A program made the translations under genes and the position numbers. A model generated the notes under the pieces. That model had not been told where the DNA came from. It saw only the letters and a program-made list of their open reading frames with translations, and made no database searches. 64,000 nt of DNA from an uncultured Gammaproteobacteria bacterium (GTDB lineage: Bacteria; Patescibacteriota; Microgenomatia; UBA8517), in the NCBI GenBank assembly GCA_964583105.1, contig CAZOUV010000004.1:2996-66995 (forward strand), given 5' to 3'. Position 1 is the stretch's first letter. Each line of letters begins with the position of its first letter. Shown one piece after another: positions 9,450 to 34,991 of this stretch.

Positions 9450-9732
9450 TCAGTTATTCAATTAATCAATAGAAGTTTTACAAGGACAGGAGTGGGTCGC
9501 TGTTGCTGGTACAAAACATACTCGCAACGATATGACAAACCCTACTGCGATATACGCACACAACATGTTAAAAAATTCAGGAGACGAACAAATCAGAGAA
9601 GTAGCTGATGAGTTTGGCGAACCATGTCAGGATCCATTCTTACAAAGATCTATTAGTCAGTGATATAAGTTAACCTCTTTATGTTTGCTTATAAGTGATC
9701 GAGCTACGTATGTGATAAAATAGTAGTACGCA

Positions 9733-9805
9733 CGGAGTGTGGCTCAGTTGGTAGAGCGCCGCGTTTGGGACGCGGAGGTCCCCGGTTCGAGCCCGGGCAC
9801 TCCGA
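9733..9805 (+). tRNA. tRNA-Pro (anticodon TGG)
   Basis: Acceptor cggagtg/cactccg, D-arm gctc-agttggta-gagc, anticodon stem ccgcg/cgcgg with loop ttTGGga, T-arm cccgg-ttcgagc-ccggg. Confidence 0.8.
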
Positions 9806-9867
9806 CAGATTTTAGCTTCTTAAAATTCCTTTTGAATTGTTACTTTTTAATCGTGTAATATGTATAA

Positions 9868-10905
9868 ATGGCTAAATTTAAAAAATACTTGGCATTTTTG
9901 TATAACATAAGACATAATTATCCCGATCCTGACGACCCCCGTACTTTTTTGGAAGCCGATTTTGATGACCCCGAGACAATAACATCGTTCATAAAGCATC
10001 TGAAGGTCTGTGGTTATCGCGTACTCCCCATTGAAGCAAACATAAAATCATGGGAAGAGCTTGACAGAAACAAGGGGGATATTTTTATGGCGTTTAACTA
10101 TTCGGAAATTGTTTTGGGAGAAAAAGAAGGTGTTCAGATAACCAGATACCTTGAAGATCTTAAAATTCCGTTTACCGGTCCGGATGATGCCTCACAGGTC
10201 TTAATAAGAAATAAAATAAGGGCGAAAGAAATTTTGAGGGAAAATGGTATTCCGGTTTTACCGCATCAGGTTTTTAAAACAGGCGATGAGCCTTTTGACG
10301 AACAAATGAAATTTCCTCTGATAGTTAAACCTTCGAATCAGGGGTCTTCGGCAGGAATTACCAACAAAAGCGTTGTTGAAAACGTTTCAGATCTTTATAA
10401 GCAGGTAAAGGAAATTTTGGCAAGATTTAATGATGAGGTTTTAGTTGAACCATTTTTGGAAGGAAGGGAATTTTCTATTCCCCTTGTTGGAAGTAAGCCC
10501 GATATTTTACCTATCATAGAACCTGATTTTTCAAATTTGCCCAAAGATTACAAAAAACTTGATTCATACGAGGTTAAGTGGATTTATGAAGAAGGAAATG
10601 CGGGAAAAGATCATTTAATCTGTCCGGCTGAGATTGACGAAGATTTTAGACAAAAACTTGAAAATATTGCTTTGGATGTATGGAATGCTCTCAATATAAA
10701 GGATTTTTGTAGGATAGATATAAGATGTGACAACAATCTAAAACCCTACGTTTTGGAGATAAATTCCCCCGCTGGACTTATTCCGCCTGAAGTTTCCCAG
10801 TCAAGCTATTTACCGCTATCGGCAAGAAAAGCGGGTATTTCCTTTCCGGAATTACTTAAAAAAATAGTCGATTCGGCTTTGGAAAGATATAAAATTTTGG
10901 TATAA
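9868..10905 (+). CDS. ATP-grasp protein of the D-alanine--D-alanine ligase family
   Basis: Central and C-terminal ATP-grasp features (...IPFTGPDDASQVLIRNKIRAKEILRENGIPVLP...LIVKPSNQGSSAGI...). The N-terminus deviates from canonical Ddl. Confidence 0.6.
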   Translation: MAKFKKYLAFLYNIRHNYPDPDDPRTFLEADFDDPETITSFIKHLKVCGYRVLPIEANIKSWEELDRNKGDIFMAFNYSEIVLGEKEGVQITRYLEDLKIPFTGPDDASQVLIRNKIRAKEILRENGIPVLPHQVFKTGDEPFDEQMKFPLIVKPSNQGSSAGITNKSVVENVSDLYKQVKEILARFNDEVLVEPFLEGREFSIPLVGSKPDILPIIEPDFSNLPKDYKKLDSYEVKWIYEEGNAGKDHLICPAEIDEDFRQKLENIALDVWNALNIKDFCRIDIRCDNNLKPYVLEINSPAGLIPPEVSQSSYLPLSARKAGISFPELLKKIVDSALERYKILV

Positions 10906-13670: not shown

Positions 13671-13746
13671 GGTGGGTGTAGCTCAGTTGGTTTAGAGCGC
13701 CACTTTGTGGAAGTGGAAGTCGCGAGTTCAAGTCTCGTCACCCACC
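13671..13746 (+). tRNA. tRNA-His (anticodon GTG) with encoded G-1
   Basis: Extra 5' G at 13671 opposite discriminator C. Acceptor gtgggtg/cacccac, anticodon stem ccact/agtgg with loop ttGTGga, T-arm gcgag-ttcaagt-ctcgt. Accessory DNA starts immediately 3'. Confidence 0.8.
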
Positions 13747-14136
13747 CAAGACTGAACTCATAAAAACGGGTGAGCTTGCTTTAGCCTCGAAGGAAGAGTT
13801 CGATATAGCTTTTTCAATATATTTAAATGGAGTCCTTGGTTTAATGGATAAAACTTTGTCTTTAATAGTTATTTCGCTTCCTGTAACCAACAAGATATTC
13901 TTTCTGTCTTCTGTCGTGCCATAATCCCATCTGTTTTTTAATGATATGGTGAAGTTAAACGTAGCAATCAAAGTATCAGTCCATTCGGATAGCTCATGAT
14001 CGGAGTTTTTCATTCTCCTATAAATGCTTTGTTTTTCAATCAAATACTTTTGTTTAAATCGTTTGTATTCTTCATTCGAAAGAAGTTCCTTGTCTTCATT
14101 TTCAACGGATAGCCACTTTTCGGTTAAGTTGTCCAT
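13738..14136 (-). CDS. C-terminal (coiled-coil) fragment of the large serine recombinase, in a different frame from the main ORF
   Basis: 132-aa ORF overlapping the stop of 14124..15293 by 13 nt. Together they total ~520 aa, the normal size of a large serine recombinase. Confidence 0.4.
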   Translation of the reverse strand: MDNLTEKWLSVENEDKELLSNEEYKRFKQKYLIEKQSIYRRMKNSDHELSEWTDTLIATFNFTISLKNRWDYGTTEDRKNILLVTGSEITIKDKVLSIKPRTPFKYIEKAISNSSFEAKASSPVFMSSVLGG

Positions 14137-15293
14137 CTTTGAAATGGCATTAGTATAGTCTGCCTTAAGTACGCCATGCTGTTTAAGTCTAACCGCCCGA
14201 TCCTGTCTTCCGCTTCTCTAAGCCATTTAATCATCCAATCAACATAACTTTTTTTAATAGTTAGGTTAGATAAGTATTTGCTGACTCGTTCCTTAAGTTC
14301 CGGGGCCGCTACCATAGGTTGATTACAGCCGATTCCCTTTTTACAACACTTGTAGTAATCAAAGACCTTACCGCTTTTTTTTGGATGAGTTTCCCCCGTC
14401 CAACGATAACCACATTCACCACACTTAATTGAACCTTGAAAATCAAAGGTATGAGTTTGGATTCGTGGATGACCTTTATTGACTAGAGCATCCTGAACAG
14501 CATCAAATTCAGAGTCGCTTACCATTGGAGTATGTTTACCTTGATAGGTAACACCATCGTAAATAAATCTGCCGGTATAAAAAGGATTTCGTAAGATATT
14601 GTATAACTGAGTTCTGCTTATTGATCTTCCCCTATTTGTTTTGATTCCCATTTGTATTGCTTTTCTGTAAAGCTCTTTAGTTGAAAACTTTCCTGTTATC
14701 GCCAGTTCAAAGATATGTTTTACTAATCTAAAGTAGAGAGGATGTGGAGATATTGTTCTTTCTCCTTGCCTTTTCTCTAAATCATTTTTGTATCCTGCCG
14801 GAGCCAGTCCTGGATAATCACCCAATTCAAGTTTTCTATCAACTCCCCGTTTAGTATCAATTCTTAAATCTCTGATAAACCTTTGTCCTTGGGAGCCTTC
14901 GATGGCCAAAGTAAAGTCTGAATCAGTTTCATCATAGGTTTTACTTGGCGTAACTATTTCAAGAATTCTTCCATCTGACAACCTTTGTCTGACAAGTCCT
15001 TCATCCTGAGGATTTCTAAAAAGTCTATTTGGTTTCCATGCAATAATGCCTTTGATATCTTGCCTTGTATCAATCATCTGAATTAGTTTGTTGAACTCTT
15101 CCCTTCCCGGTGCTTTTGCAGATTTACTTTCCGTATAAGTTGATAATATATTTAGTTTTCTCTCTTCCGCTAGTCGATAAAGTACTTCTAATTGATTCTC
15201 TATACTGACAACTTGTTGATCCTCACCTTCGGAGGATTTTCTAGCGTAGAGCAGATATTGGTCTTTCATAATTAATCTTTTGTCTAATTTCAT
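14124..15293 (-). CDS. large serine recombinase (resolvase/invertase catalytic domain + recombinase domain + zinc ribbon); probably frameshifted near its 3' end
   Basis: N-terminus LLYARKSSEGEDQQVVSIENQ (Y-x-R-x-S catalytic Ser motif), central recombinase domain, and a Cys cluster CGECGYRW...CCKKGIGC (zinc ribbon). Confidence 0.7.
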   Translation of the reverse strand: MKLDKRLIMKDQYLLYARKSSEGEDQQVVSIENQLEVLYRLAEERKLNILSTYTESKSAKAPGREEFNKLIQMIDTRQDIKGIIAWKPNRLFRNPQDEGLVRQRLSDGRILEIVTPSKTYDETDSDFTLAIEGSQGQRFIRDLRIDTKRGVDRKLELGDYPGLAPAGYKNDLEKRQGERTISPHPLYFRLVKHIFELAITGKFSTKELYRKAIQMGIKTNRGRSISRTQLYNILRNPFYTGRFIYDGVTYQGKHTPMVSDSEFDAVQDALVNKGHPRIQTHTFDFQGSIKCGECGYRWTGETHPKKSGKVFDYYKCCKKGIGCNQPMVAAPELKERVSKYLSNLTIKKSYVDWMIKWLREAEDRIGRLDLNSMAYLRQTILMPFQRWTT

Positions 15294-15298
15294 AGTAG

Positions 15299-15484
15299 TT
15301 AGTTAGAATATTTTGTCAATCCGACTGACTGGACTTTGTTCGAACTCTGAGGCTGTTTTATTAACATTTTGAATAAATTCATCATATTATTGGCCAAAGC
15401 GACTGCTTCTGAATCTGAAAGTATGGTGCTTTCTTCTTTAAAATAGATATTTTTAAACTCATCAATTGCTTTTTTTGGTAACAT
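15299..15484 (-). CDS. hypothetical protein (mobile-element cargo)
   Basis: 61-aa ORF co-oriented with the island genes. Confidence 0.25.
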   Translation of the reverse strand: MLPKKAIDEFKNIYFKEESTILSDSEAVALANNMMNLFKMLIKQPQSSNKVQSVGLTKYSN

Positions 15485-15490
15485 AAATTT

Positions 15491-15856
15491 TTATTTCTTC
15501 TCTTCAATTTCCTTTTCCAGTTTATCCAACCTGACTTCAACATCTGCTTTATCGTAAGCATCCAGGAAGCATCTAATTAGGAAACCCAGTGTATTTGCTA
15601 TTGGAGTAGCGGGAATATCCCCTCTCCAAACTCCATTTATTATCTTGGCAAGAAATATCTTTGCATCTTGGGCATTGTTCAAGCAGATTTCTTCTTCATA
15701 ATTTAATAGTGTTTTCTTTGGTGCCAAACCACCCTTTTTAACAGCCAGAGCTCTTTCTTCTTTTTTATGCGGATCATGAGTAAAACAAAAGGTACTATCA
15801 GATTGAGCATTGGCCTTACACTGAGAATTATTTTCTTTAATAAAAATGCATTTCAT
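15491..15856 (-). CDS. hypothetical protein, Cys/His-containing N-terminus
   Basis: 121 aa; CKANAQSDSTFCFTHDPH could be a small zinc-binding motif. Confidence 0.35.
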   Translation of the reverse strand: MKCIFIKENNSQCKANAQSDSTFCFTHDPHKKEERALAVKKGGLAPKKTLLNYEEEICLNNAQDAKIFLAKIINGVWRGDIPATPIANTLGFLIRCFLDAYDKADVEVRLDKLEKEIEEKK

Positions 15857-16079: not shown

Positions 16080-16311
16080 TTAAACGGATCTTTTGTTCCA
16101 GTTCATTTAGATCTTTAGTTGTTTTTTCAATATCCGAAGACTTACTCAACTCTCTTTCCTTGTAGGCTTTCCATTCAGGAATACTAATTAAATCCTTTGG
16201 TCCCAAATCAAATAGCCATCTTTCAATTTTAAGCATGGAACTATAGTCAAAACCTTGCATATTAGTAATCGTTTTTTCTATCGTTTCAATCCTGTTTAGT
16301 ATTGTTTTCAT
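16015..16311 (-). CDS. hypothetical protein
   Basis: 98-aa ORF overlapping neighbours in operon-like fashion. Confidence 0.3.
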   Translation of the reverse strand: MKTILNRIETIEKTITNMQGFDYSSMLKIERWLFDLGPKDLISIPEWKAYKERELSKSSDIEKTTKDLNELEQKIRLNDGFMELIFYSSDGRVLGHVY

Positions 16312-16495
16312 AAGCTTTACTTGTAGGGGTATCCCCTTCAGACAAAGATGTTCCTCCCAAAATTGGAGGTGGCATTCTTTTACCGTTTATGTAAAACGGT
16401 TCTTTCATCGATACAATAGGTATGTACTTATCAAAGTCTTCCTCTTTCGGATTTAACTTTTTCTCTATATTTTTTAGTCTTGTTGATGTATTCAT
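16286..16495 (-). CDS. hypothetical protein
   Basis: 69-aa ORF. Confidence 0.25.
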   Translation of the reverse strand: MNTSTRLKNIEKKLNPKEEDFDKYIPIVSMKEPFYINGKRMPPPILGGTSLSEGDTPTSKAYENNTKQD

Positions 16496-17483: not shown

Positions 17484-18907
17484 ACTTTTTCTACCTCCGT
17501 TTCGGTTATTTCTTTGATTTCCTTAGGCTCTTCGGACACTAGGGACGCTTTTACAATCGTCTGTCGGTTCTTGTTAGGATTTGTGTATTCCAATCCATAT
17601 TGTTCTGCTAAGGATTCAATTAAGTCCGGATCAAATTCAATTCCCCTTTTACTTCTATCGGCATTTCTAATCATCTTGAAACCAAGTCCCCTTAGCTCTG
17701 ATCCAATTTTGTCTAGGCCATACCAAAACTTTTCTGCTCTTTCTAAATTTATTTGTGTTGTTATGTCTTGAGTCGATAAAAAGTTAGTATTTGCAATAAC
17801 ACTTCCTTGTAATGCAACAACCGCATTTAATAGTTTTGACTCAAGGGTTGATCCAGCTTCGTCTTTCTTTTGCGTTCTCGCATAGGCTCTAAAGTTAATA
17901 AAGTTCTTTTCATAATCAGGGAATAGTGTTCTTATCATCTGGTGGTATCCTCTTAAGTAGTTTTCGAGTTTTCCTGCTCTATCTTTGGTTAAGCCTATAA
18001 AGGAAGTATTAAAGTGAGCCATTCTAAAAGCGGTAAGCTTTTCTTTATAAGGAAGCCCTAATTCTGGTGTCGCTTCTACGTTAAATACTTTCTTGCTAAA
18101 GGGCATATTGAAAACAATGCATCTTGCTTCTGTTATTGCATCAACCATTACATTTGAAGTAGCTGCGGTAAGTCCAAATACTGAAAAATCCACCATATCC
18201 TTAAAAGCTCCTCTTTCCGGGTAAAGTACTCTCGAAGAGACAACTCCTCTTTCTGCTCGTCCAAAGATGAGATCTTCTGAATTACTTTTTTCTACCTTTA
18301 GTGGAAAGTTTCTAACATCAAAGAATAGCGAAGCTTCGTAATCACTTGCCCACCTAATAATATTTGGTTCTCTAAAGGTTTCTGTAAAGACTCCTCTTCT
18401 ACTTATGTACGCTAAAGCTTTAAGTGTTGGAGTTTTACCCCGGTCTTTTGTCGCAACCAAGAAAAGAATCGGAGAAAAGTTAAACTTCTCTATTAAGTGG
18501 GAATGAAAAGCAGTCCAAACCAAATAGTCATAATGAAGTTCTGTTGGCAAATCACTAAATTGCTTAAAGTAAGCTATTAACTCCGGATAAAGAGTTTTAT
18601 TGCAATATTGACAGACGGTAGTAGACGCGTCCTTAGTGTCCGTAGTGGTATGCTTTTCAAGTTCTTCAAGCACATTTTCAACCCTTGGTGTAAGCCAGGA
18701 TACTTTTTCTGGAGAGAAGTACTCTTTTCCACCAACAACAACTTTTGTAGTCAATTCTTTGTCAAAAGTTAGAAACTTAATGACTCCCTTTTCGTCAACT
18801 AAATCTACCAAGCCCTTAAAGTTGCCAAGATAAAAGACTCTATCTCTTTTCTCTTGAGTTACATCTTTAGCTGCTTTTGTTAATATCTCTTTATCCTTTT
18901 TCTTCAT
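17480..18907 (-). CDS. P-loop NTPase, putative replication protein (helicase/primase-associated)
   Basis: 475 aa. Walker-A-like LVATKDRGKT and a downstream hhhhD (LFFDV) Walker-B-like motif. Translationally coupled to the primase-zinc-finger gene. Confidence 0.45.
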   Translation of the reverse strand: MKKKDKEILTKAAKDVTQEKRDRVFYLGNFKGLVDLVDEKGVIKFLTFDKELTTKVVVGGKEYFSPEKVSWLTPRVENVLEELEKHTTTDTKDASTTVCQYCNKTLYPELIAYFKQFSDLPTELHYDYLVWTAFHSHLIEKFNFSPILFLVATKDRGKTPTLKALAYISRRGVFTETFREPNIIRWASDYEASLFFDVRNFPLKVEKSNSEDLIFGRAERGVVSSRVLYPERGAFKDMVDFSVFGLTAATSNVMVDAITEARCIVFNMPFSKKVFNVEATPELGLPYKEKLTAFRMAHFNTSFIGLTKDRAGKLENYLRGYHQMIRTLFPDYEKNFINFRAYARTQKKDEAGSTLESKLLNAVVALQGSVIANTNFLSTQDITTQINLERAEKFWYGLDKIGSELRGLGFKMIRNADRSKRGIEFDPDLIESLAEQYGLEYTNPNKNRQTIVKASLVSEEPKEIKEITETEVEKV

Positions 18908-24019: not shown

Positions 24020-24697
24020 ATGATTTTAATTAAAAACACATCACTAATTGAGTACGATGATTTACTTGAGAAAGCTATAAAAATCTGCGTCCAATATGAC
24101 GCAGTTTCTCCAAGTCTGTTTCAAAGGAGATTGGAAGTGGGTTATGCTCGTGCGTCTCGATTAATTGATCAGTTAGAATTTGCAGGAATATTAGAATCAT
24201 CAAGGGGCAATAATTTACCTAGAAAGGTTCTTACATTTAAGAATAACAAGACGACCAAAAAGTCACCATTTTTTAAAGAAGGATCGGAAGGGTATCTAAT
24301 GAGTTGCGCACAACTAATTAAATATACTCTTGAAGCTCATGGTATTTGGGTAAGGGTTAACTCAATTGAAATTACATCGCAAAACATATGCTTTTATATG
24401 GAAGTTGCTCTTGGAACAATAATTAATAAGATTTTGAAATTAAAGAAGGAACTAGCTCTATCTCTTGCCTCACCTACCGGAAATATAATTATTGCAGCCC
24501 CATTTAAAGGAACTTCTTTAGTAGCTCTATACTTGCCTACTAAAAATAATTTAAGAAAAGCAAGCTATCGTGTTATTAATGAAGAATTTGTAATAAAACC
24601 TCCACAATACCCATATTTATATGCAATAAAAACCTTTTTCCAAAGATTCTTCTTACGAATATCAAATTATTTTTACGATCTTGCATATAAGATATAG
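24020..24697 (+). CDS. orphan FtsK-like protein: FtsK gamma (winged-helix) domain followed by an FtsK alpha-like domain, no ATPase
   Basis: Residues ~25-70 VSPSLFQRRLEVGYARASRLIDQLEFAGILESSRGNNLPRKVL match the FtsK/SpoIIIE gamma-domain consensus (SLLQRRLRIGYNRAARLIDQLE..GIV...GSKPREVL). The C-terminal LEAHGIWVRVNSIEI...FYMEVALGT...LAL.LA...IIAAPFKGTSLVALYLP resembles the FtsK alpha domain. Confidence 0.5.
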   Translation: MILIKNTSLIEYDDLLEKAIKICVQYDAVSPSLFQRRLEVGYARASRLIDQLEFAGILESSRGNNLPRKVLTFKNNKTTKKSPFFKEGSEGYLMSCAQLIKYTLEAHGIWVRVNSIEITSQNICFYMEVALGTIINKILKLKKELALSLASPTGNIIIAAPFKGTSLVALYLPTKNNLRKASYRVINEEFVIKPPQYPYLYAIKTFFQRFFLRISNYFYDLAYKI

Positions 24698-24905
24698 CTT
24701 TAAAAGTGTCCATGATTTCTCCTAAACTTATTCAAGAGTTTAAACAAATATATAAAGAAGAAATGAATGAAGACTTAACTGATCAAGAAGCATTTGAATC
24801 GGCACAAAATCTTCTTAACTTCTTTGAGTTGCTAATTAAAATTGATTTAAGAAACAGGATAAAATAGTATACTGGTTGTGCGAGGTTCATAACTCTGGAT
24901 ATAAC

Positions 24906-26218: not shown

Positions 26219-26458
26219 ATGAATGATAGACAGGCGCAAAAAGTAGGATTTTGGAAATGGATGTCTTCTAAAAAATTAGGTATTATTTTATTTTGGATTT
26301 TCGTCTTAATAACATCCACACTTAACCAGACAGACGTATTTTCAACAAATCCTTTAAGTTTAATAATAAATGCAATGTATGGAACATTGGGTTATATTAT
26401 TTTTATTCTCCTGACATTCACAGCATGGTTTTATTTGGTAACGAATAGACGACCCTAA
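26219..26458 (+). CDS. small membrane protein (2 TM)
   Basis: 79 aa with two hydrophobic helices. Confidence 0.3.
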   Translation: MNDRQAQKVGFWKWMSSKKLGIILFWIFVLITSTLNQTDVFSTNPLSLIINAMYGTLGYIIFILLTFTAWFYLVTNRRP

Positions 26459-26577
26459 GGTCGAAAGAGTCGTTTAAATACCCCACCTTCTTACTTTCGT
26501 TTTGTTTATTGTATGCCATTCTGTGGCAATTTCTACAAGCCAAAATAGTAGAATTTGGTGGAAAATATAATAGGCAT

Positions 26578-27123
26578 CTACACTTCTAACACTTTTCTCA
26601 AATCATCCTGAGTGAAGTGATAATAGAGAGACGTCGACGAAAGGGACGTATGGCCTACAAACTTCTGAACTTGTGGCAAGGGTACCCCCTTGTCCAGTTT
26701 AGTTGTAATCCAATGGTGCCTAAAGGTATGAGGCCGAATGTTTTTATTAATTCCCGATGCTTTTACTCTTCTTTTTAAGGCTAAATAGGCTGATAACCTA
26801 CTCATGGCGTTATCATCTCTACCTCTGAAGATATAGCCCTCTCTACGGCCTCCTATGAGCTTACGGAGGCTTCCGGTCATGTTATCGGTAATAGGAATAA
26901 TCCGATCTTGGTGGTTCTTGGTATTTCTTAGAGTAAGAAATCTTTGTGCTGGATCAAAATCTTGAATCTTTAAGCTGGTTATTTCGCTAATTCTTGCTCC
27001 TGAATCCCAAAGCAGTTGGATAATTGTATTCATAATAAACTTCTGAGATGGGTAGCAATTAATGGGAGCATTCAGAATTTTTTGGAGGTCTACTTCTGTC
27101 AAAAAAGGTTGAGACTTTAGCAT
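26578..27123 (-). CDS. minimal tyrosine recombinase (catalytic domain only, 181 aa; no N-terminal core-binding domain)
   Basis: Complete catalytic set in order: R (DSGARISEI), K (RNTKNHQDRIIPI), H-x-x-R-H (HTFRHHWIT), Y (GHTSLSSTSLYYH). The upstream coding space is occupied by the terminator and 3' end of the next gene, so it is either truncated or naturally minimal. Confidence 0.7.
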   Translation of the reverse strand: MLKSQPFLTEVDLQKILNAPINCYPSQKFIMNTIIQLLWDSGARISEITSLKIQDFDPAQRFLTLRNTKNHQDRIIPITDNMTGSLRKLIGGRREGYIFRGRDDNAMSRLSAYLALKRRVKASGINKNIRPHTFRHHWITTKLDKGVPLPQVQKFVGHTSLSSTSLYYHFTQDDLRKVLEV

Positions 27124-27230
27124 TTTTAGTAACCTATAACTGTTAAAAAATTAGTTTTGAAGCTAATCTATATTAACATTATATCTATAAAGTATATATT
27201 AGGCTACCAGTACTTTAATGTCAATAAGTT

Positions 27231-27272
27231 ATAAAAAAAACAAAAAAGCAGGGGTTGCTTTCACTCCCCTGC
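27231..27272 (-). terminator. rho-independent terminator for the 27325..28557 gene
   Basis: On the minus strand: GCAGGGGAGUGAAAGCAACCCCUGC hairpin followed by UUUUUUGUUUUUUUU. Confidence 0.6.
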
Positions 27273-27324
27273 TAATTTATTTTCGTAACAATCTATCCTT
27301 TTTATTAAGACAAATGTTTTCTAG

Positions 27325-28557
27325 TTAAAGATTGGCAATAATATCAACATAAAGATTTCCAGCATCATTGCTGTAAGAACCAGTAATGTCATATATACCA
27401 AAATTTACCTTATCTCCTACCCCTACAGACGGTAATTCGTAAGTATGCAATGGGTTATATGTTCCCCAATCTACATAGTCTCCATTAACCCTTAAATCTA
27501 AAAGATCTGTACCATAGGAAGTATAAGGTGCTGCTACTCCATCAACCCAAGTTAAGAAACTCGGATAATCTGAAGTACTGTACTCAGCATCAAAGGTAAT
27601 GTGGCACCCTGATTGCCAACAAGCTGTGGCTGTACCCCTAGCATTAAATAGGTAATTTACACCATTTAATAATGGGTATAAAGAATCTTTGGGTGTTGAT
27701 TGGTTAGCTGGAACCGTAACGGTTTCTATATACCATCTGCCACTTACATTTCCATCACTCAGATTAGTATGGAATTCTTCAAGAACACTAGAACTCAAAC
27801 CAAATTTACGATGACCATTCATTGCATCACCTAAATCTATTTGAAGGATATCCAAAATCTGATGCCCGTTACAACCATAGGTATATGATAAATCATATGC
27901 ATATGTAGCTTCAGTTTCACCTTTTCCGATTGGTTTATTCTGATACCATCCCAAAACTTCTTCAACTTCCATAACTTGCCATCTATTTGTTCCCCAATCT
28001 CTTTCCCAATTGCCAGTATCTACTTCAGTATCTGGACAAAGATCCATTCCATTACCAACCCCATCACCATCCGTATCTCCAAACCATCCATAGGCTACAA
28101 AAGAATAAAACCTATCTGTTGTTCCTGCTTCTGAAAGAGTAGAGCCTTTGGCTGGTTCACCATTATTGTTTGGGGTATAGTACGCAGGGTCTGCGGTTCC
28201 ATCGTAATTAAAAGGGATAGTTCCCGAATTCTGGAACCAAAAACCTACATTCCATCCTGTTTCAACAGGGACAGCTGTTGCAAGATTGTAAATGTTAACA
28301 CCTGTTGATGTGGGAGTAATCAATTCACTTTTCCACATAACCATTTTACCTGCATCTAAAACAAGAAACTTAAATGGATTTGTATTAGAAGCCCAGTATT
28401 CAAACTGAACTAATACTCCATCAGATGCTGCAGGATTATTTGTATCAACAATGGAAAAGTTTTGGTAAGAATCAACAACGGAACGAGATATCGCATCGTT
28501 TCCAATAGTTATGTCGTATGCAAAAGCTGTTGAAACAAATACCAAAGTTAAAACCAA
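27325..28557 (-). CDS. secreted protein with Asp-rich calcium-binding-like (DxDxDG / thrombospondin-type-3-like) motif
   Basis: Hydrophobic N-terminus VLTLVFVSTAFA (signal peptide); DTDGDGVGNGMDLCPDTEVDTG; Gly/Tyr/Asn-rich. The annotated start is TTG. The in-frame upstream KIKKLLSVLGG plus a strong SD (GGAGGTGA at ~28585) suggest the true start lies a few codons upstream, possibly at a rare start codon. Confidence 0.5.
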   Translation of the reverse strand: MVLTLVFVSTAFAYDITIGNDAISRSVVDSYQNFSIVDTNNPAASDGVLVQFEYWASNTNPFKFLVLDAGKMVMWKSELITPTSTGVNIYNLATAVPVETGWNVGFWFQNSGTIPFNYDGTADPAYYTPNNNGEPAKGSTLSEAGTTDRFYSFVAYGWFGDTDGDGVGNGMDLCPDTEVDTGNWERDWGTNRWQVMEVEEVLGWYQNKPIGKGETEATYAYDLSYTYGCNGHQILDILQIDLGDAMNGHRKFGLSSSVLEEFHTNLSDGNVSGRWYIETVTVPANQSTPKDSLYPLLNGVNYLFNARGTATACWQSGCHITFDAEYSTSDYPSFLTWVDGVAAPYTSYGTDLLDLRVNGDYVDWGTYNPLHTYELPSVGVGDKVNFGIYDITGSYSNDAGNLYVDIIANL

Positions 28558-28930: not shown

Positions 28931-28979
28931 ACAATAGTTTACTAACCCTGTAAAATAGCTTCAGGTGATATAATAAGCC
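28931..28979 (+). repeat. duplicated leader/promoter-like element (copy 1) containing motif TAGTTTACTAACCCTG and an extended -10 TGaTATAAT
   Basis: acaaTAGTTTACTAACCCTGTAAAATAGCTTCAGgTGaTATAATaagccg immediately precedes the GTG start of 28980..29468. It is ~90% identical to 29471..29529. Confidence 0.5.
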
Positions 28980-29468
28980 GTGTCGGAAAAAACAGATAAT
29001 CTACTTACAGAGGGACTGATTGAAGGTTATGCAGGTGTTAAAAAACCAGTGAGAATTCAAAGGTCAGAATTTCTTGGAAAGGCAAATGACTTTGTGGGTT
29101 CGGATGGGGGTCACTATCATGACGAATGGTTTGCTGATGATAACGGTGGTGGACAGGAATTAGTAAAAGAAGGAGAGGAACAATTTACCAGATTATATGG
29201 TGGTGGTGTAATTCCTGTTGAGGAACTTCAAAAACTTGGTTTAAACACTAAAGACGTAATCTCTCGTTTAATAACAAGCGTGAGGCAACTTAAGGAAAAA
29301 ACTAGGTTACATGAACCATGTGCTTTAGAACTTCCAGGCGGTTGGAGTTATAAATATGAAATTATCAAAAAGAGTAAGGAAGTTCCACTGACTGTTGGTT
29401 ATGAGTCAATTGAACTTAACGGCAGAGAACTTTTTGCCCACGCCCATATACTTTCACCCGTAAAATAG
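28980..29468 (+). CDS. hypothetical protein (GTG start)
   Basis: 162 aa, acidic and Gly-rich (DGGHYHDEWFADDNGGGQ). Confidence 0.35.
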   Translation: MSEKTDNLLTEGLIEGYAGVKKPVRIQRSEFLGKANDFVGSDGGHYHDEWFADDNGGGQELVKEGEEQFTRLYGGGVIPVEELQKLGLNTKDVISRLITSVRQLKEKTRLHEPCALELPGGWSYKYEIIKKSKEVPLTVGYESIELNGRELFAHAHILSPVK

Positions 29469-29470
29469 AA

Positions 29471-29529
29471 GTTCCGTACATAGTTTACTAACCCTGTAAA
29501 ATAGCTTCAGATGCTATATAATCCGCTCC
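29471..29529 (+). repeat. duplicated leader/promoter-like element (copy 2)
   Basis: aGTTCCgtACATAGTTTACTAACCCTGTAAAATAGCTTCAGaTGcTATATAATccg precedes 29530..29817. Its 5' part is also related to the 29818 and 30738 elements. Confidence 0.5.
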
Positions 29530-29817
29530 ATGACTGAAAAAGCTGTCGTTGTAACCATTAAGCCCGAAGATATGCATTGTTCAAATTGTTTTTATGGTCA
29601 CCAAATTGTAGCTGGCATGGGCGGAGGCAATATCGAAGATGACGGAACAAAAACCAGTTGGGTGCTATTAAGAAGAATTCCTGTCGGCCAAACAAGAAAT
29701 TGTTTTGGATTGGTTGAAAAAGTTTTATCTCAACTAGATTTCATCAAACTCAATCATTTTATTTATCCGAACGAGGATGACACATGCATCAACCCCAAAA
29801 AATTTATGGCGAAGTAG
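29530..29817 (+). CDS. hypothetical small protein with CxxC and Gly-rich loop
   Basis: 95 aa: HCSNCFYGHQIVAGMGGGN... Confidence 0.35.
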   Translation: MTEKAVVVTIKPEDMHCSNCFYGHQIVAGMGGGNIEDDGTKTSWVLLRRIPVGQTRNCFGLVEKVLSQLDFIKLNHFIYPNEDDTCINPKKFMAK

Positions 29818-29970
29818 TTCCTGACATATTTCACTAGCCCCTGCCTATACATAGTTAAATTGATAGTTATAGTCAGTCATTAGAAGACTCTTTAACATCT
29901 GATAATCAGTGGAATTAAGATCAAAATTAGTTCGAACATCGTTCACTAGCTCACCCTGGGTTTTTAGCCT
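29818..29970 (+). repeat. array repeat copy 1, long form (secondary element 29818-29889 + 81-bp core 29890-29970)
   Basis: Core cTTTAAcATCTGATAATCAGTgGAATTAaGATCAAAATtAGTTCGAACATCGTTCACTAGCTCACCCTGgGTTTTTaGCCT. It is preceded by TTCCTGACATATTTCACTAGCCCCTGCCTATACATAGTTA, which recurs at 30738. Confidence 0.85.
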
Positions 29971-29984
29971 TAAGAAAGTTCTCT

Positions 29985-30296
29985 ATGTGGTTGCAACTAA
30001 GTTTTGGATTGATATTCTCTTCCTCTTTTATTATAATCGCTTCCATGACTGAATCACCCAATTTCCCTTGGTGCAAGGGATGTCCCCTACCTGAGATTTT
30101 GGGAAAAATTACTCAAGCCAGAAATGGAGTACTTGCTGCCAATGCTAATATTCGTCTTTCAGAATCACCCACACAAGCTCATCCTTACCGGATAGAAGCA
30201 CTGTGGAGAATGAAAAAATTCCGAAATGAAAGGGCTAGGCTTGATGAATTCAAAATAAGTTTGGGTGATAATTGTCCTTCTTGCACTCTTCTATAA
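29985..30296 (+). CDS. hypothetical small membrane-anchored Cys-containing protein (cassette)
   Basis: 103 aa. N-terminal hydrophobic helix; CKGCPLP...CPSC. Starts 15 bp after repeat copy 1. Confidence 0.35.
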   Translation: MWLQLSFGLIFSSSFIIIASMTESPNFPWCKGCPLPEILGKITQARNGVLAANANIRLSESPTQAHPYRIEALWRMKKFRNERARLDEFKISLGDNCPSCTLL

Positions 30297-30401
30297 GTAT
30301 ATACAAACCACTCGGACAGTTTATTAAAATAATTAAGCGTAAAAAGTTCGAATACTTTCCATCTAAAGCTGCAAAATAGATTCAAAAAAAACAAGACTGA
30401 A

Positions 30402-30725
30402 TTATTTACTGTTTTCCTCTATTTCTTTCCTAATATCTAAAATATCCTTCGTACTTTTTATAACAGCTTGCGTTAGGTTTTTGGGTAAATGGTGTTGATG
30501 TTTCTTTGGGTCTTTTCTCCCGCCAAGCATATCCCCCAATTCACCCAAAAACTGCGAATGCATAGCAATACACCCGGCCATATCATTTTGCTGGTTCTTT
30601 GTCCCTTTTTTGAGAGAAGCCTCTAAATTCTTCCTTTTAAATTTGTCGGCGAAAGGGTATTTTTTATCTTCCATTATTTGTACCATTATACTCCAAAGAT
30701 ATTGAAATTCTCCACCTATCCCCAC
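30402..30725 (-). CDS. hypothetical protein (cassette)
   Basis: 107 aa, basic/His-rich (KKHQHHLPK). Convergent with 29985..30296. Confidence 0.35.
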   Translation of the reverse strand: MGIGGEFQYLWSIMVQIMEDKKYPFADKFKRKNLEASLKKGTKNQQNDMAGCIAMHSQFLGELGDMLGGRKDPKKHQHHLPKNLTQAVIKSTKDILDIRKEIEENSK

Positions 30726-30737
30726 ACAGCAAAGAAG

Positions 30738-30894
30738 TTCCTGACATAGTTTACTCGTCCCTGCCTATACATAGTTATATTTATGGTTCTATTCAGTTGA
30801 TAAAAGTAAGGACTTTAATATCTGATAATCTGTCGAATTAGGTACAAAATGAGTTCGAACATCGTTCACTAGCTCACCCTGAGATTTTGAGGCT
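30738..30894 (+). repeat. array repeat copy 2, long form (secondary element 30738-30812 + core 30813-30894)
   Basis: TTCCTGACATAGTTTACTCGTCCCTGCCTATACATAGTTA...cTTTAATATCTGATAATCtGTCGAATTAGGtaCAAAATGAGTTCGAACATCGTTCACTAGCTCACCCTGAGaTTTTGAGGCT. Confidence 0.85.
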
Positions 30895-30927
30895 ATGAGC
30901 TCGCCTACAATGACTTTATCGGAACTT

Positions 30928-31794
30928 CTAAGCTAATAGTGATAAAGAAATTATCCCAACCAAAGTTACAACCATGCCTAGTATTTGTTGTTTGGTTAAC
31001 CGGTCTTTGAAAACAAAGTAAGCCAATAAGGCAAACAGGGCCGGATAAGAGCTGGCAATCGGAGCAATAATTGAACTCTGGCCTTTTGTGACCGCCAAAT
31101 TGAAAGAGAAAAGAGCCATGATGGAGACTAATGAGTTGAGAATTACAAAGATAATGTGTTTTTTGTCTTTGGGAACAGAGATTTTAATTGACTTTTTTCG
31201 TAAGTATAAAAGAACAATCGGAAAACCCCACCAGGAAATATATGCTGGCCAAAACCAACCGACTTGCTTAATTGGAATTTTAACAAAAGTAAAATAAATC
31301 CCCCAAGCTACCAGCGATATTAATGCAAAAGGCAAACCTTTATCGCTCAATAGTTGATGAACATTAATATTTTTTAGGTTGATTGAAGACAGAATTAGCC
31401 CAACCAAAACAATCACAATACAAAATACCTGAGACATATTTAGGCTTTCTCCCAAAAACAAAACGGAAAGAATAGAAACCAAAGCGCCAAATGAACCAGC
31501 GACAGTACCAACTAAAGAGGCATTTCCCCGACTGATACCTTCATATAAAGTTACTAAAGGAATAATACCAATAGGTAGTAAAGCAATCAGCCAAAGACTT
31601 GTTCCTAAAGTCATATTTCTCAGTTCTGGCCATGCAAAAGGGATATAAAGCGAAGCAAAAACAATACAAAAAACATAGTTTAAAACTGCAGAAGAATAGC
31701 CATTAGTTTTGCGGGCAACTAGACCACCAAAAATATCGCCAACCCCCCAACCGATAAAGGCAATGAGAGCAAATATGATAGCTTGCATCTGCAT
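30928..31794 (-). CDS. DMT-superfamily (EamA-like) transporter (cassette)
   Basis: 288 aa, ~10 TM helices, two EamA-like halves. Stop codon 34 bp from repeat copy 2. Confidence 0.6.
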   Translation of the reverse strand: MQMQAIIFALIAFIGWGVGDIFGGLVARKTNGYSSAVLNYVFCIVFASLYIPFAWPELRNMTLGTSLWLIALLPIGIIPLVTLYEGISRGNASLVGTVAGSFGALVSILSVLFLGESLNMSQVFCIVIVLVGLILSSINLKNINVHQLLSDKGLPFALISLVAWGIYFTFVKIPIKQVGWFWPAYISWWGFPIVLLYLRKKSIKISVPKDKKHIIFVILNSLVSIMALFSFNLAVTKGQSSIIAPIASSYPALFALLAYFVFKDRLTKQQILGMVVTLVGIISLSLLA

Positions 31795-31949
31795 CTAGTA
31801 TATCAAAATTTTATATGGAGTAGTTTTTAGGACAGTATTAGAACCTGAGCTCGCTTTTAAGGATTCGAACTGTCAACTATGGATAATTGCGTGTTAGTAG
31901 GTGACATAGGGAATGGGGTAAGTATTGTTAATTGCCAAAAACCAAAAGG

Positions 31950-32034
31950 CTTTTTAATATCTGATAATCAGTCGAATTAGAATCAAAATTAGTTCGAACA
32001 TCGTTCACTAGCTCACCCTGAGTTTTTGAGGCCT
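31950..32034 (+). repeat. array repeat copy 3 (core)
   Basis: CTTTTTAATATCTGATAATCAGTCGAATTAGaATCAAAATtAGTTCGAACATCGTTCACTAGCTCACCCTGAGTTTTTGAGGCCT. Confidence 0.85.
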
Positions 32035-32068
32035 AATATTTATAGAGGAGATATTGTATAGAAACTAA

Positions 32069-32251
32069 CTAATTAGGTGTAAACTTTTCTTCATGAGACA
32101 CCCAACGATATATTTTTGTTTTCTGCCCTGTCTTAGGATCTGTTAATGTTTCCTCACCTGGAACTTTTGCTGGGGTAAACCAACCCTTCCCTTTTTCTAC
32201 CCAACCACCAAACATGCTATCGCTAGTTGTTTCTGCAACTATATCTTTCAT
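32069..32251 (-). CDS. hypothetical small protein (cassette)
   Basis: 60 aa. Stop 35 bp from repeat copy 3; start ~75 bp from copy 4. Confidence 0.3.
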   Translation of the reverse strand: MKDIVAETTSDSMFGGWVEKGKGWFTPAKVPGEETLTDPKTGQKTKIYRWVSHEEKFTPN

Positions 32252-32325
32252 AAATTATCTGGATACTATATCTAATATTTATTATTGTCAATATAATCTG
32301 TAACAGGTTTTGTTATTAGTAAAGT

Positions 32326-32406
32326 CTTTAATATCTGATAATTGGTAGAATTAGGCACAAAATGAGTTCGAACATCGTTCACTAGCTCACCCTGAGATTT
32401 TAGCCT
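32326..32406 (+). repeat. array repeat copy 4 (core), followed by a TAGTTTACTAGCCCTTG motif at 32424-32440
   Basis: CTTTAATATCTGATAATtgGTaGAATTAGGcaCAAAATGAGTTCGAACATCGTTCACTAGCTCACCCTGAGaTTTTaGCCT. Confidence 0.85.
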
Positions 32407-32464
32407 CCAAGAATTTCTTTATATAGTTTACTAGCCCTTGCTAATTTTTATTATTTCCGAACTG

Positions 32465-33064
32465 CTAATTTACGAAACTCATTCTTGAAGATATGGTTAG
32501 CATCCAGCCGGGCTCTTCACCTTGAATTTCCCAACGTTTTTGTAAATGATCCCAAGTCATAACTCGAACCCCCACCCCGTACGGGGTTTCGTTTTCACCG
32601 ATAATCAGGGGATCCATAAGCCACATAAACTTCTTGCCGTCAGCTACTTTATCTATTTTATAAATTACTGAATAGTGCCCATGTTTTTTACTATTACCGG
32701 GAGTTGGATTTTTTATTAACCACAAAAAATCATGACCATAGTCATAATTCGGTGCCTGATACTCAACCAAGCAAAAATTACCTTCAGATAAAGCGTTTTC
32801 CATATCTTTCATATTAGCCTGTTCGTATTCCTTAATCTTTATATTATGTTTATTAAATACCTCGCTAATTTTGGATGTATCAGCAGTTCCCTGCTTATTG
32901 GTACCTAGTTGAAGATACAATTCATCATAAGACGTTTCAACTCCGAGGGTAGACAAAATGGAGAATACTGATGCAGGGCAACAATCTTCTTGTCTAATTT
33001 GAGTTTTAGGTATTATTTTTCCTGGTCCAATTGATTCTTCCGGTTCTAGCCTTACCCTTTCCAT
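32465..33064 (-). CDS. stand-alone C39-like (papain-fold, bacteriocin-processing-type) cysteine peptidase domain protein (cassette)
   Basis: Cys motif QEDCCPASVFSILSTLG, His motif HGHYSVIYKID, and a downstream WLMDP (Asp). These match the C39 order and spacing (Q..C-G/P-A...HY-VV...DP). There is no ABC-transporter domain. Confidence 0.55.
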   Translation of the reverse strand: MERVRLEPEESIGPGKIIPKTQIRQEDCCPASVFSILSTLGVETSYDELYLQLGTNKQGTADTSKISEVFNKHNIKIKEYEQANMKDMENALSEGNFCLVEYQAPNYDYGHDFLWLIKNPTPGNSKKHGHYSVIYKIDKVADGKKFMWLMDPLIIGENETPYGVGVRVMTWDHLQKRWEIQGEEPGWMLTISSRMSFVN

Positions 33065-33179
33065 ATAGTTAGAATTATATCAGCTTAATATTAAAGCAAA
33101 ATAAGTTTATGGCACAGTTTATGAAACCTGTTTATATATAGCTAGGATGATGATTACAGTTAGTTATTAGAAGTAGGGT

Positions 33180-33260
33180 CTTCAATATCTGATAATCAGT
33201 TGAATTAGGATCAAAATGAGTTCGAACATCGTTCACTAGCCCACCCTGTGTTTTTGGCCT
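33180..33260 (+). repeat. array repeat copy 5 (core)
   Basis: CTTcAATATCTGATAATCAGTtGAATTAGGATCAAAATGAGTTCGAACATCGTTCACTAGCcCACCCTGtGTTTTTGGCCT. Confidence 0.85.
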
Positions 33261-33271
33261 CAAATTTTTTT

Positions 33272-34456
33272 CTAAAGTATAGATCCTGCCCATGCGTAGT
33301 TAGAAAACTTTGGAGATTGATGTCTGCCAACTAGTTTAAGATTCGGAATTTGAGTGTCTGTGGCTATACGAGTTAGGTGTGCCAAATCTCCCTCAAGTGG
33401 AGTTTCTTTGGCTTCAATAGCTAAATTTTCATTTAAAATGAAGTCTATTTCATGTCCAGTTTTAAGAGCGAAATATTGGATTTGACCAACTCTTGAAAGC
33501 TGGTTAAATAGAGTGTTTTCAAATTGAGCTCCACTAGAAAGTTCTGCTAAAGTATTGGCAAGACCCGTATCACAAAAGTAAAGTTTTCTGGACTTTACTA
33601 CTTCTCTGTCAACACTTTTTGTAAAGACAGGAATAGTGCTTATTAAGTAAGTTTTTTCAAAAAAAGAAATATAGTTGGTTACGGTCGGACGGGATATTCC
33701 AGTGAGTCTTGATAATTTGGAATATTCTACCCTGCTACCTACTCTCCCAGCCAGAAGTTTGGCAAGAGAATACAAGTTCCGCTCATCAGAAAAATCAGCG
33801 AGAGAACGGATATCTATATTTACATACGAAGACATAATATCTGATAAAAGATCACGTTTATCAGACTCCGATTCAGCAAGCACTACTTGAGGGAAGCCAC
33901 CAAAGCGGATATATTCTTCATAATAAGAAGACAGACGGTTAAATTCCGAAACATTGAACGTTCCCTTTTGCCAGTTTGTTTGTGAGAAAGAAATGTTTTT
34001 AAAAGTGAGAAATTCTCCAAAGTCTAATGGAAATAACTCAAAAAGTTTTTTTCGTCCGGATAAAGATTCAGAAAATAGATTCTTAAGGTAATATGAGCTT
34101 GATCCGGTGACAATAAATTTGATTTTATGATGGTCAGACAAATACTTAATTGCACTGGGGCTATCCGGAGCCAGTTGGATTTCATCAAGGGCGATTACCA
34201 TTGGCTTATCAGATTGTAATCCTCGGGCAATAAATGCCTCATTAATGGATTCATAGTTTTTTTCATCAAAAAGCTCACGGTTATCTGGTCTCTGCAAATC
34301 CAGGTAAAGTGAGTTTTTATTAGAAATATTCAAAAGTAACTGTTGAATAAGAGTAGTTTTACCCGTTCTTCTCATGCCTGTGAGTACTGTAACTAACGGA
34401 GTTTGGACGTGAGAAAGAAGTTCTGTATAAATTTTGCGGTTGTAGAACATATGCAA
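33272..34456 (-). CDS. AAA+ ATPase of the DUF4143/archaeal-ATPase type (cassette)
   Basis: Walker A LTGMRRTGKTTL, Walker B VIALDEIQ, and a conserved C-terminal DUF4143-like segment. 394 aa. Stop 12 bp from repeat copy 5. Confidence 0.6.
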   Translation of the reverse strand: MHMFYNRKIYTELLSHVQTPLVTVLTGMRRTGKTTLIQQLLLNISNKNSLYLDLQRPDNRELFDEKNYESINEAFIARGLQSDKPMVIALDEIQLAPDSPSAIKYLSDHHKIKFIVTGSSSYYLKNLFSESLSGRKKLFELFPLDFGEFLTFKNISFSQTNWQKGTFNVSEFNRLSSYYEEYIRFGGFPQVVLAESESDKRDLLSDIMSSYVNIDIRSLADFSDERNLYSLAKLLAGRVGSRVEYSKLSRLTGISRPTVTNYISFFEKTYLISTIPVFTKSVDREVVKSRKLYFCDTGLANTLAELSSGAQFENTLFNQLSRVGQIQYFALKTGHEIDFILNENLAIEAKETPLEGDLAHLTRIATDTQIPNLKLVGRHQSPKFSNYAWAGSIL

Positions 34457-34534
34457 TCGTCACTTTACAGAAAGTGACACTATTTGTCAAGTGTCACTTT
34501 TACGTACGTTGTCTAAGGGGTGTCAACATGAGAG

Positions 34535-34605
34535 CTTTTAATATCTGATTATCAATGGAATTAAGATCAAAATGAGTTCGAAGATCGTTCACTAGCTCAC
34601 CCTGA
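34535..34605 (+). repeat. array repeat copy 6 (distal, 3'-degenerate)
   Basis: CTTTTAATATCTGATtATCAaTgGAATTAaGATCAAAATGAGTTCGAAgATCGTTCACTAGCTCACCCTG, then diverges (no GAGTTTTTGAGGCC). Confidence 0.8.
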
Positions 34606-34991
34606 TTAGCTCCTCAAGAGTCTAATCTTTATGTGATATATTAATACCGGTATATATCGTAAAGAAGATATGAAAGTATAGTTAATTGATTCTCGAGCCA
34701 TTTGCGTAGTTTTATGTAATACTTGTAAAACAGTTGTTGCTCAGGATATGGGAACCCCAATTGATGTTGCAATCGTTATTAATCAAACAAGAGGTCATTT
34801 ATCCTGTCCATCGGTAGGTGCTAGCGTAGGTATGGTACACGAGATATTAACAGTTGATATGCAAACAGCCTATTCACAATCTGGTTTGCATTTAGAAAAG
34901 AAATTTACTGATTATAAGTAAAAGATTTAAAATCTTGTATATTCAGTAAGATGTTATCTAAAAGGCAAGGTTAATATATACTTGAAGTTAA

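Follow-up and report, generated by a model that had tools for sequence, protein, structure and literature searches.

A recombinase gene with a promoter and an inverted repeat of its own

The 64-kb stretch of contig CAZOUV010000004.1 that was analysed here (the window) contains on its minus strand a gene for an Xer-like tyrosine recombinase (YR), which is accompanied by a promoter and a short inverted repeat. Loci used for comparison are labelled L001, L002, and so on. The gene and its immediate surroundings comprise the following features.

26578 to 27123, minus strand: catalytic-domain-only, Xer-like tyrosine recombinase, 181 amino acids (aa), ATG start (list of open reading frames (ORFs), Pfam, NCBIfam, alignment)
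27124 to 27169, minus strand: conserved leader with an outer TTAGC(C/T) repeat and a Shine-Dalgarno-like AGG (27133-27135) ahead of the ATG (alignment)
27170 to 27199, minus strand: 30-bp inverted repeat ATATATACTTTA-TAGATA-TAATGTTAATAT (12-6-12), overlapping the -10 box (conservation in 12 loci)
27196 to 27224, minus strand: sigma-70-type YR promoter with TTGACA (27224-27219), a 17-bp spacer and TAATAT (27201-27196) (promoter scan)
26450 to 26463, minus strand: terminator-like hairpin, ~115 bp past the YR stop codon (terminator scan, consensus match only)
About 27240 to 27275: intrinsic terminator of the neighbouring 410-aa gene (sequence scan)
27325 to 28557: neighbouring gene for a 410-aa protein (ORF list)

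Coordinates, length and quoted sequence of the ORF agree between the original prediction and the ORF list of the window, which contains no longer in-frame ORF upstream of YR. The prediction had further stated that a terminator and a neighbouring gene occupy the DNA in which an N-terminal domain would be encoded. Both were found, but the conserved promoter and site of YR itself (27124-27224) come first and are followed by the neighbour's terminator and the 410-aa gene. Because the terminator-like hairpin follows shortly after the stop codon, the unit looks monocistronic. Promoter, site, gene and hairpin together make up a module of roughly 0.78 kb.

YR consists of the catalytic domain alone

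The Pfam profile Phage_integrase (PF00589) matches YR with E=1.7e-32 (113 bits, cut-off 27.1) and is aligned from position 2 to 169 of 172. The Xer models of NCBIfam align with their C-terminal parts only (XerA 96-262 of 263, XerD 103-283 of 290, XerC 106-285 of 295); the N-terminus of YR is the equivalent of XerD residue 103 and XerA residue 96. Since Phage_integrase is covered nearly end to end and the Xer models only C-terminally, YR is a catalytic domain without a core-binding domain. A SAM-like N-terminal domain was not found in YR with Pfam. The original prediction was thus correct in stating that the core-binding domain is missing and the R-K-H-R-H-Y set complete. In the alignment, the six residues are R44 (in the motif ARISE), K69 (NTKN), H132 and R135 (HTFRH), H158 (VGHTS) and Y167 (LYYH).

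The AlphaFold model of YR has a pLDDT of 81 and is confident except around the C-terminal segment that bears the tyrosine. The best matches in the PDB, by sequence and by fold, are the catalytic domains of XerA and XerD (4a8e, 5hxy, 5dcf, 1a0p). The XerA model is matched with E 1e-35, and the identity to the catalytic domains of XerA, XerD and XerC is 22-29%. The curated cut-offs of these models are not reached (XerA 123.6 vs 220, XerD 105.6 vs 329.6, XerC 93.2 vs 335 bits). An alignment to XerC and XerD, as had been proposed, hence yields matching catalytic domains, but scores below the equivalog level.

A small family of constant length is under purifying selection

In a search of 5.8 billion proteins, about 45 relatives of YR with 55-100% identity were identified. 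Their length is 180-182 aa, save for fragments at contig ends and one 215-aa call from an upstream start. The next-best matches are generic Xer-like proteins of 294-302 aa with 28-29% identity. A profile search of 1.84 billion cluster representatives gave 353 and 284 bits for two full-length representatives; beyond these, one 195-aa protein reached 170 bits and generic recombinases at most 153 bits. The family thus appears to be isolated in sequence space. Other, unrelated proteins of 180-195 aa that consist of Phage_integrase only are present in the databases.

The family is rare, with four NCBI entries and one match in 185,579 species representatives (low-sensitivity scan). A single-protein scan of genome contigs yielded only one close relative, which was already known. 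Among the cluster members, one is labelled Candidatus Dojkabacteria and another "Patescibacteria group". Literature searches yielded no description of the family.

All members of a 27-sequence alignment share the same start methionine, and R44, K69, H132, R135, H158 and Y167 are invariant among them. For seven loci with DNA sequence, dN is 0.08-0.22 and dS is saturated; where it could be computed, dN/dS is 0.036-0.055.

For the missing domain, the original prediction had offered two explanations, namely that YR is the truncated remnant of a once longer integrase or that it is a naturally minimal recombinase. A remnant would lack the core-binding domain, as YR does, and the frameshift in the adjacent gene for a large serine recombinase (LSR) indicates that decay does occur in the region. 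However, start and length are kept in about 45 relatives, dN/dS is about 0.04 with invariant catalytic residues, and YR has a conserved promoter and leader of its own. Neither a full-length orthologue, for which the prediction had suggested a check, nor a truncation point was found; the nearest longer proteins are the Xer-like ones mentioned above. The remnant was therefore rejected, and it is virtually impossible that YR is one. Constant start and length at 55-100% identity, together with purifying selection, support the second explanation. It appears from these comparisons that YR is intact and that it belongs to a small and tightly conserved Patescibacteria family of minimal recombinases, which probably descended from Xer-like enzymes and lost the core-binding domain entirely.

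A 30-bp palindrome co-varies at the promoter

In a comparison of 12 distinct loci, conservation is limited to the gene and ~110 bp upstream of it; beyond, and 3' of the stop codon, the loci are unrelated. The 84 nt preceding the ATG have a mean ungapped pairwise identity of 72%, compared to 41% for four-fold degenerate sites, 29-30% for both flanks and 27% for the random expectation. As far as sequence comparison can tell, the non-coding DNA upstream of YR is shown by these values to be under strong selection. The promoter, which matches the consensus at 10 of 12 positions, keeps its -35/-10 spacing in nearly all of the 12 aligned loci, and the sequence of the spacer varies.

The 12-6-12 inverted repeat is located 47-76 bp upstream of the ATG in all 12 loci. 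Its 6-bp centre varies freely among relatives, and its arms change together. For example, the arm pair is ACAAAA/TTTTGT in L002, ACATAA/TTATGT in L004, L009 and L031, TTAGCATAA/TTTAGCTAA in L027 and GAAACAAAA/TATTGTTTC in L025. Paired arm cells are symmetric in 76% of cases vs 66% in shuffles, a value that none of 500 shuffles reached. Changes on both sides have occurred at 9 of the 12 arm positions, and shifting the register of the arms lowers the symmetry to 29-55%. A profile search found one copy of the site per locus, the entire 64-kb window included, and no second copy of the kind that an invertase or an attL/attR model implies. The site is intact in every locus, and no insertion separates it from the -35 and -10 boxes or from the gene.

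Two inverted arms of ~12 bp around a variable 6-bp centre are the geometry of core sites of the dif, lox and FRT type. The 30-bp inverted repeat is therefore a candidate for the site at which YR binds and recombines DNA. The predicted transcription start is located inside the left arm, which makes an RNA hairpin unlikely. If the predicted promoter is real, a protein-binding site in double-stranded DNA would be the simpler reading of the palindrome. Because it overlaps the -10 box, binding must affect transcription.

This overlap would also be expected if YR were mainly a DNA-binding regulator, similar to the SPbeta repressor MrpR/YopR, or a nicking YR-like relaxase such as MpsA and TcpM, with the palindrome serving as operator or oriT. 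MrpR/YopR and SroF are among the fold matches of YR, and precomputed Pfam matches to MrpR_C_cat exist, which are weak. Moreover, phages of the SPbeta type have both an integrase of the LSR class and a repressor with the YR fold (PMC10516654), and the oriT at which the SGI1 protein MpsA acts is close to the mpsA gene (PMC6414798). In contrast to YR, however, MrpR keeps three of seven catalytic residues in a degenerate centre and has retained the core-binding domain (PMC10516654). YR is the opposite on both counts: all six of its catalytic residues are invariant, which argues for a retained DNA cleavage and joining chemistry. One site per locus likewise differs from the many operators of MrpR. 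MpsA is a full-length protein that depends on MpsB, whereas no conserved partner or transfer genes were noticed beside YR in the loci that were read, where no systematic search was made. A function of YR mainly as regulator or nickase is thus distinctly improbable.

The module resides in accessory DNA rich in mobile-element genes

The neighbours on both sides of YR differ from locus to locus. No conserved neighbour was found that might provide the core-binding domain as a separate protein, in the way of MpsB for MpsA. The genes downstream of YR resemble genes of mobile elements. In the window, they include the following features.

13738 to 15293, minus strand: LSR, split by a frameshift into 14124-15293 and 13738-14136 (ORFs; Pfam Resolvase, Recombinase, Zn_ribbon_recom)
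13672 to 13747, plus strand: tRNA-His, overlapped by the last codons (3' end) of the LSR (tRNA search)

The two serine-recombinase ORFs that the original prediction had placed at 13.7-15.3 kb are present and represent this one broken LSR; they encode 389 and 132 aa and overlap by 13 bp. The overlap of the LSR with the tRNA gene is at the 3' end of tRNA-His. The LSR appears to bound an element of ~12.7 kb (13.75 to ~26.5 kb), which contains a CHC2 primase and several genes of unknown function.

An LSR on the same strand is found 2.7-11 kb downstream of YR in the window, L001, L004 and L010. The LSRs of different loci share 24-31% identity. Two small genes next to the LSR of the window (15491-15856 and 16286-16495) are homologous to the two genes that directly follow YR in L010. 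The element-like DNA also contains HTH_3 repressor-like genes, a zeta toxin and an HTH_17 gene, and replication genes occur in these stretches, namely the primase in the window and RepO plus DnaG/DnaB in L001. In L027, the 3' end of an LSR is located ~770 bp upstream of the module, which is the order expected of a circular form.

The Mg-chelatase-like competence gene comM of L001 is cleanly interrupted by a 16.6-kb insertion, and the module lies within this insertion. One fragment of 218 aa (262-918) contains ChlI and positions 1-25 of Mg_chelatase; the other, of 281 aa (17531-18376), contains positions 37-206 of Mg_chelatase and Mg_chelatase_C. The LSR abuts the 3' fragment. A helicase with DUF4011 and DUF3320 is also encoded in this insertion.

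The backbone of L020 and L021 is that of the window (uvrC, holin, SBP, followed by tRNA-His, Gly, Pro, Leu and Arg), and their syntenic region contains neither YR nor the site. The part of the window from 13.7 to 36 kb therefore represents a variable island region, to which the module belongs as accessory DNA.

The YR genes of L032 and L004 are 84% identical at the nucleotide level (dS 1.17). The two loci share only site and gene, tRNA-Pro plus 53 bp, and a repeat of roughly 91 bp. The YR stop codon and the convergent tRNA-Pro are ~150 bp apart in L032 and are separated by a 7.8-kb LSR element in L004. A 42-aa ORF that follows YR in L032 resembles, when compared by eye, the N-terminus of a 192-aa gene product of L004. 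This suggests that L032 is a deletion derivative. The block of L004 that comprises array, YR and LSR element is flanked by tRNA-Gly and tRNA-Pro; in a related genome, these two tRNA genes are direct neighbours.

Some further observations concern the surroundings of YR. In L031, a gene adjacent to tRNA-Arg encodes a full-length tyrosine integrase of 324 aa (9162-10136, minus strand) and is located 5 kb downstream of YR, which suggests that elements beside the module can use either a standard tyrosine integrase or an LSR. Small proteins of 53-61 aa that form one family are repeatedly encoded in the element-like DNA around YR, with members in the window (24706-24867, plus strand; 15299-15484, minus strand), in L008 (9684-9869) and in L009 (14455-14625). 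At 24020-24697 (plus strand), 1.9 kb downstream of YR, the window contains a 225-aa ORF with an FtsK gamma domain at the N-terminus followed by FtsK alpha; this domain order is unusual, and a motor domain is missing. A weak FtsK gamma-like ORF is located at 2495-2677 of L001. In E. coli, FtsK gamma activates XerD. By analogy, it is conceivable that the ORF of the window encodes an activation factor for YR that is provided by the element.

These data also bear on the possibility that the module serves the resolution of host chromosome dimers, i.e. that YR is a single-recombinase Xer with an adjacent dif, as in XerS/difSL. The difSL site is positioned immediately upstream of a single recombinase gene, and the flanking genes are not conserved there either (PMC1914069). 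The best sequence matches of YR are Xer families, and contigs run through YR and break just after it. Some upstream neighbours recur, namely Obg, CYTH and NUDIX in L002, L008 and L009, and the genes from uvrA to SBP in the window and L009. Furthermore, GC skew and gene orientation of the window switch sign across ~12-36 kb, with plus-strand genes and positive skew before ~13 kb and minus-strand genes and negative skew after ~36 kb, and the module lies within this zone (about 13-36 kb). Such a switch is compatible with a replication terminus, but also with no more than convergent gene blocks. Elsewhere the module does not coincide with a consistent skew switch: in L001 and L004 the skew is positive on either side of it, and L002, L010 and L031 change sign in the opposite sense. 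As the skew follows the local gene orientation and is inconsistent across loci, it was rejected as a test for the terminus. A chromosomal function is further contradicted by the position of the L001 module in the comM insertion, by its absence from the syntenic region of L020/L021 and by the rarity of the family. In addition, the YRs of the window and L009 are 75% identical, compared to 47-53% for the syntenic UvrC, transglutaminase and SBP. Resolution of the host chromosome is thus quite unlikely to be the task of YR.

The repeat array is co-located with YR

Upstream of YR, the window contains an array of direct repeats, which is listed here for context.

29881 to 34628, plus strand: six copies of a ~81-100-bp direct repeat with one-gene cassettes between them (repeat search)
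29881-29982, 30805-30905, 31944-32039, 32318-32419, 33171-33271 and 34528-34628, plus strand: the individual copies

The distance from the YR start codon to the first repeat (29881) is 2.76 kb, in agreement with the ~2.8 kb of the original prediction, which had named YR as the candidate recombinase of the cassettes. The ~81-bp core of the six copies is at least 85% identical. The cassettes contain an EamA transporter, a C39-like peptidase, an AAA_14/DUF4143 ATPase and small ORFs. Between YR and the array, a 39-nt direct repeat (95% identical) occurs at 28934-28972 and 29480-29518 (plus strand), each copy just upstream of a plus-strand gene of unknown function (28980-29468 and 29530-29817).

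Direct repeats are found upstream of YR in five loci: the window, L008, L004, L032 and L010. L008 contains one repeat of the window family (9565-9664), 255 bp upstream of the site and in the same relative orientation. L004 contains three copies of a 91-115-bp repeat (4960-5074, 5508-5622, 6150-6264), L032 one copy of the same type (8749-8841), and L010 three copies of a 39-nt repeat (1105-1143, 1841-1879, 5083-5121). In L001, L002, L009 and L031, YR is present and no array was detected. The window family also occurs in L020 (6289-6364), L016 (2837-2928) and L019 (1190-1379). A 21-mer from the repeat core was found in nine metagenome loci, none of which has a YR in the sequence examined; in five of the nine, tRNA-His is 0.4-2.3 kb away.

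An enzyme that inserts and excises the cassettes bounded by the 81-bp repeat, be it integron-like or linked to tRNA genes, could account for several of these findings. The repeats are located upstream of the YR promoter in five loci, and those of one family always have the same orientation relative to YR. Between site and first repeat, closely related modules (window and L008; L004 and L032) carry different cargo, the layout resembles that of intI, attI and cassettes, and the 3' end of YR in L032 is close to the convergent tRNA-Pro. However, the similarity among the three repeat families is not significant (p>0.1), although the YRs are 75-83% identical and their sites nearly so. A YR half-site does not occur in the repeats above background (p 0.1-0.9), and the similarity of the repeats to the LSR-side junction is not significant. 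The site is never interrupted in any locus, which means that cassettes are not inserted there. Integron-integrase models remain far below their cut-offs.

For the two long repeat families, an attC-like hairpin was considered and rejected. The fold z of the window repeat is -0.1 to -1.8 and the outcome for the L004/L032 repeat is the same; across both families and both strands, z ranges from -1.8 to +0.2, and the consensus folds contain 0 compensatory pairs. Rfam detected only tRNAs in the window and in the repeat-bearing loci. An attL-like repeat core just 3' of the YR stop codon was likewise rejected, being not significant in any of the five loci. The same holds for the idea that the repeats mimic an adjacent tRNA at its 3' end (tRNA-His in the window, tRNA-Pro in L004): in local alignments against shuffles and other tRNAs, p was about 0.13-0.19, and the best matches were to generic T-loops and to the wrong tRNAs.

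The association of gene and repeat that had been proposed for checking is favoured by the direct repeats upstream of YR in five loci; against it, the window repeat family is also present between tRNA-His and SBP in the syntenic region of L020/L021, where YR is missing. The link between YR and the 81-bp array postulated in the original prediction could not be established; unrelated repeat families and the missing half-site and attC fold speak against it, and it is weakened further by the presence of the repeat in a genome without YR and by the intact site that YR possesses itself. What is left is a co-location of array and YR, since every test of a mechanistic link was negative, and it is unlikely that YR is the recombinase of the cassettes.

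Judged from three families only, the repeats seem to differ by lineage, as the LSRs do, while YR stays the same. A variant would be that YR is the resident enzyme of a non-IntI, integron-like platform for gene capture in Patescibacteria. The module would then be the platform, and the lineage-specific, unstructured repeats would be the attachment sites of the cassettes, recognised without half-site or attC fold. We consider this a slim prospect.

YR and its site as a putative resolution module

In summary, a minimal recombinase is maintained by selection, its promoter contains a co-evolving site, each locus has one intact copy of this site, and the surrounding DNA is accessory and rich in mobile-element genes. 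We tentatively interpret YR and its site as a self-contained, autoregulated resolution module of the Xer/dif type, which is probably carried by a mobile element; doubts about this function still somewhat outweigh our confidence in it. Two YR monomers would bind the two arms of the site, and this binding would repress the promoter of YR. Whenever two identical sites were present on one molecule, be it a replicon dimer or tandem copies, strand exchange across the 6-bp centre would yield monomers. XerS/difSL, Cre/loxP and ResD/rfsF resolve molecules to monomers in this way. The replicon served would most likely be the replicative, LSR-integrating mobile element that accompanies the module and not the host chromosome. 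At rest, a resolution site is expected to be present as one intact copy per locus, as observed here. The proposed function fits this single site and the replication genes, and it fits L032 poorly.

Several findings weigh against resolution. No recombination product and no locus with two sites were seen, so that catalysis at the site is what we infer; a palindrome on the promoter would look identical if it were an operator only. Having no core-binding domain, YR would have to hold the 30-bp site by other means. Close relatives are absent from IMG/VR and from GenBank phage records, where the best matches reach at most 33% identity. As L032, compared to L004, has kept the module and the upstream repeat type but lacks the interior of the 7.8-kb LSR element, the module may be a neighbour of LSR elements and not a part of them. 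Finally, contigs often stop just past YR (L003, L008, L032), which fits a conserved anchor beside a variable hotspot.

Tyrosine recombinases usually consist of a core-binding and a catalytic domain, which together clamp the DNA. To our knowledge, the known exceptions to this layout are the FimB/FimE invertases. The YR family appears to be an independent, Xer-derived example, held at 181 residues by strong selection. With a size of 0.78 kb, a small protein and a short candidate site, the module is a minimal system that lends itself to direct tests. These could reveal how DNA is recognised and synapsed by nothing more than a catalytic domain, and the module might become a compact tool for recombination. 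Furthermore, it adds LSR-integrating replicative elements with a second recombinase to the poorly known mobile elements of Patescibacteria. A link to the array, if true, would represent a second route to cassette arrays, which does not involve IntI.

Comparison with known systems

The system most similar in layout is XerS/difSL, which also comprises one recombinase, a site of roughly 30 bp directly upstream of its gene, probably within the promoter, and a stand-alone, monocistronic unit with unconserved flanks (PMC1914069). XerS differs from YR in its size of about 356 aa and its N-terminal domain; YR reaches 45.6 bits with the XerS model (cut-off 267). Moreover, XerS/difSL is located at the chromosomal terminus throughout its clade, whereas the YR module is found inside the comM insertion and is absent from a syntenic relative. 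With the catalytic domains of XerA, XerD and XerC, YR shares the R-K-H-R-H-Y geometry and the nine residues from H to Y; these enzymes differ by a core-binding domain of ~100 residues. In the classification of Smyshlyaev et al. 2021, the "simple" YR architecture is a core-binding plus a catalytic domain (PMC8138268); YR departs from it in that the former is missing.

With regard to size and domain content, YR resembles FimB and FimE, which have about 200 aa and consist of the catalytic domain only. The models PRK09870 and PRK09871 (198-200 positions) align end to end (query 3-167, profile 8-176 of 200), but the relation is weak (37.8 vs a cut-off of 221 and 35.5 vs 222). FimB and FimE act on an inverted pair of sites around an invertible segment, whereas YR loci have one palindromic site. 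These invertases demonstrate that recombinases without a core-binding domain can work; they need host bending proteins. Because the YR family is closer to Xer, its loss of the core-binding domain looks independent of theirs.

Like YR, IntI has a specific site upstream of its gene and, on that side, an array of repeat-bounded cassettes with single genes. However, YR fails the integron models (TIGR02249 79.3 vs 265, NF011946 55.2 vs 435), which match in two separate stretches. The IntI-specific insertion, whose presence was to be checked according to the original prediction, is absent: K69 and H132 are 63 residues apart, which leaves no room for it. In IntI1, the corresponding residues are K171 and H277. 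The systems also differ in that attC sites fold whereas the long repeats are unstructured, and in that the YR site is never interrupted by cassettes.

On curated scores, the YR module fails membership in XerS, XerA/C/D, IntI and FimB/E. Cre/loxP of P1, ResD/rfsF of F and TnpI/IRS of Tn4430 each combine one recombinase with an inverted-repeat core site beside its gene on a replicating mobile element. Cre, ResD and TnpI differ from YR by their size of 260-343 aa and their core-binding domains, and no sequence relation to it beyond the superfamily was found. The logic proposed here for YR would nevertheless resemble theirs, and P1 has also been named as a comparison to difSL-xerS (PMC1914069).

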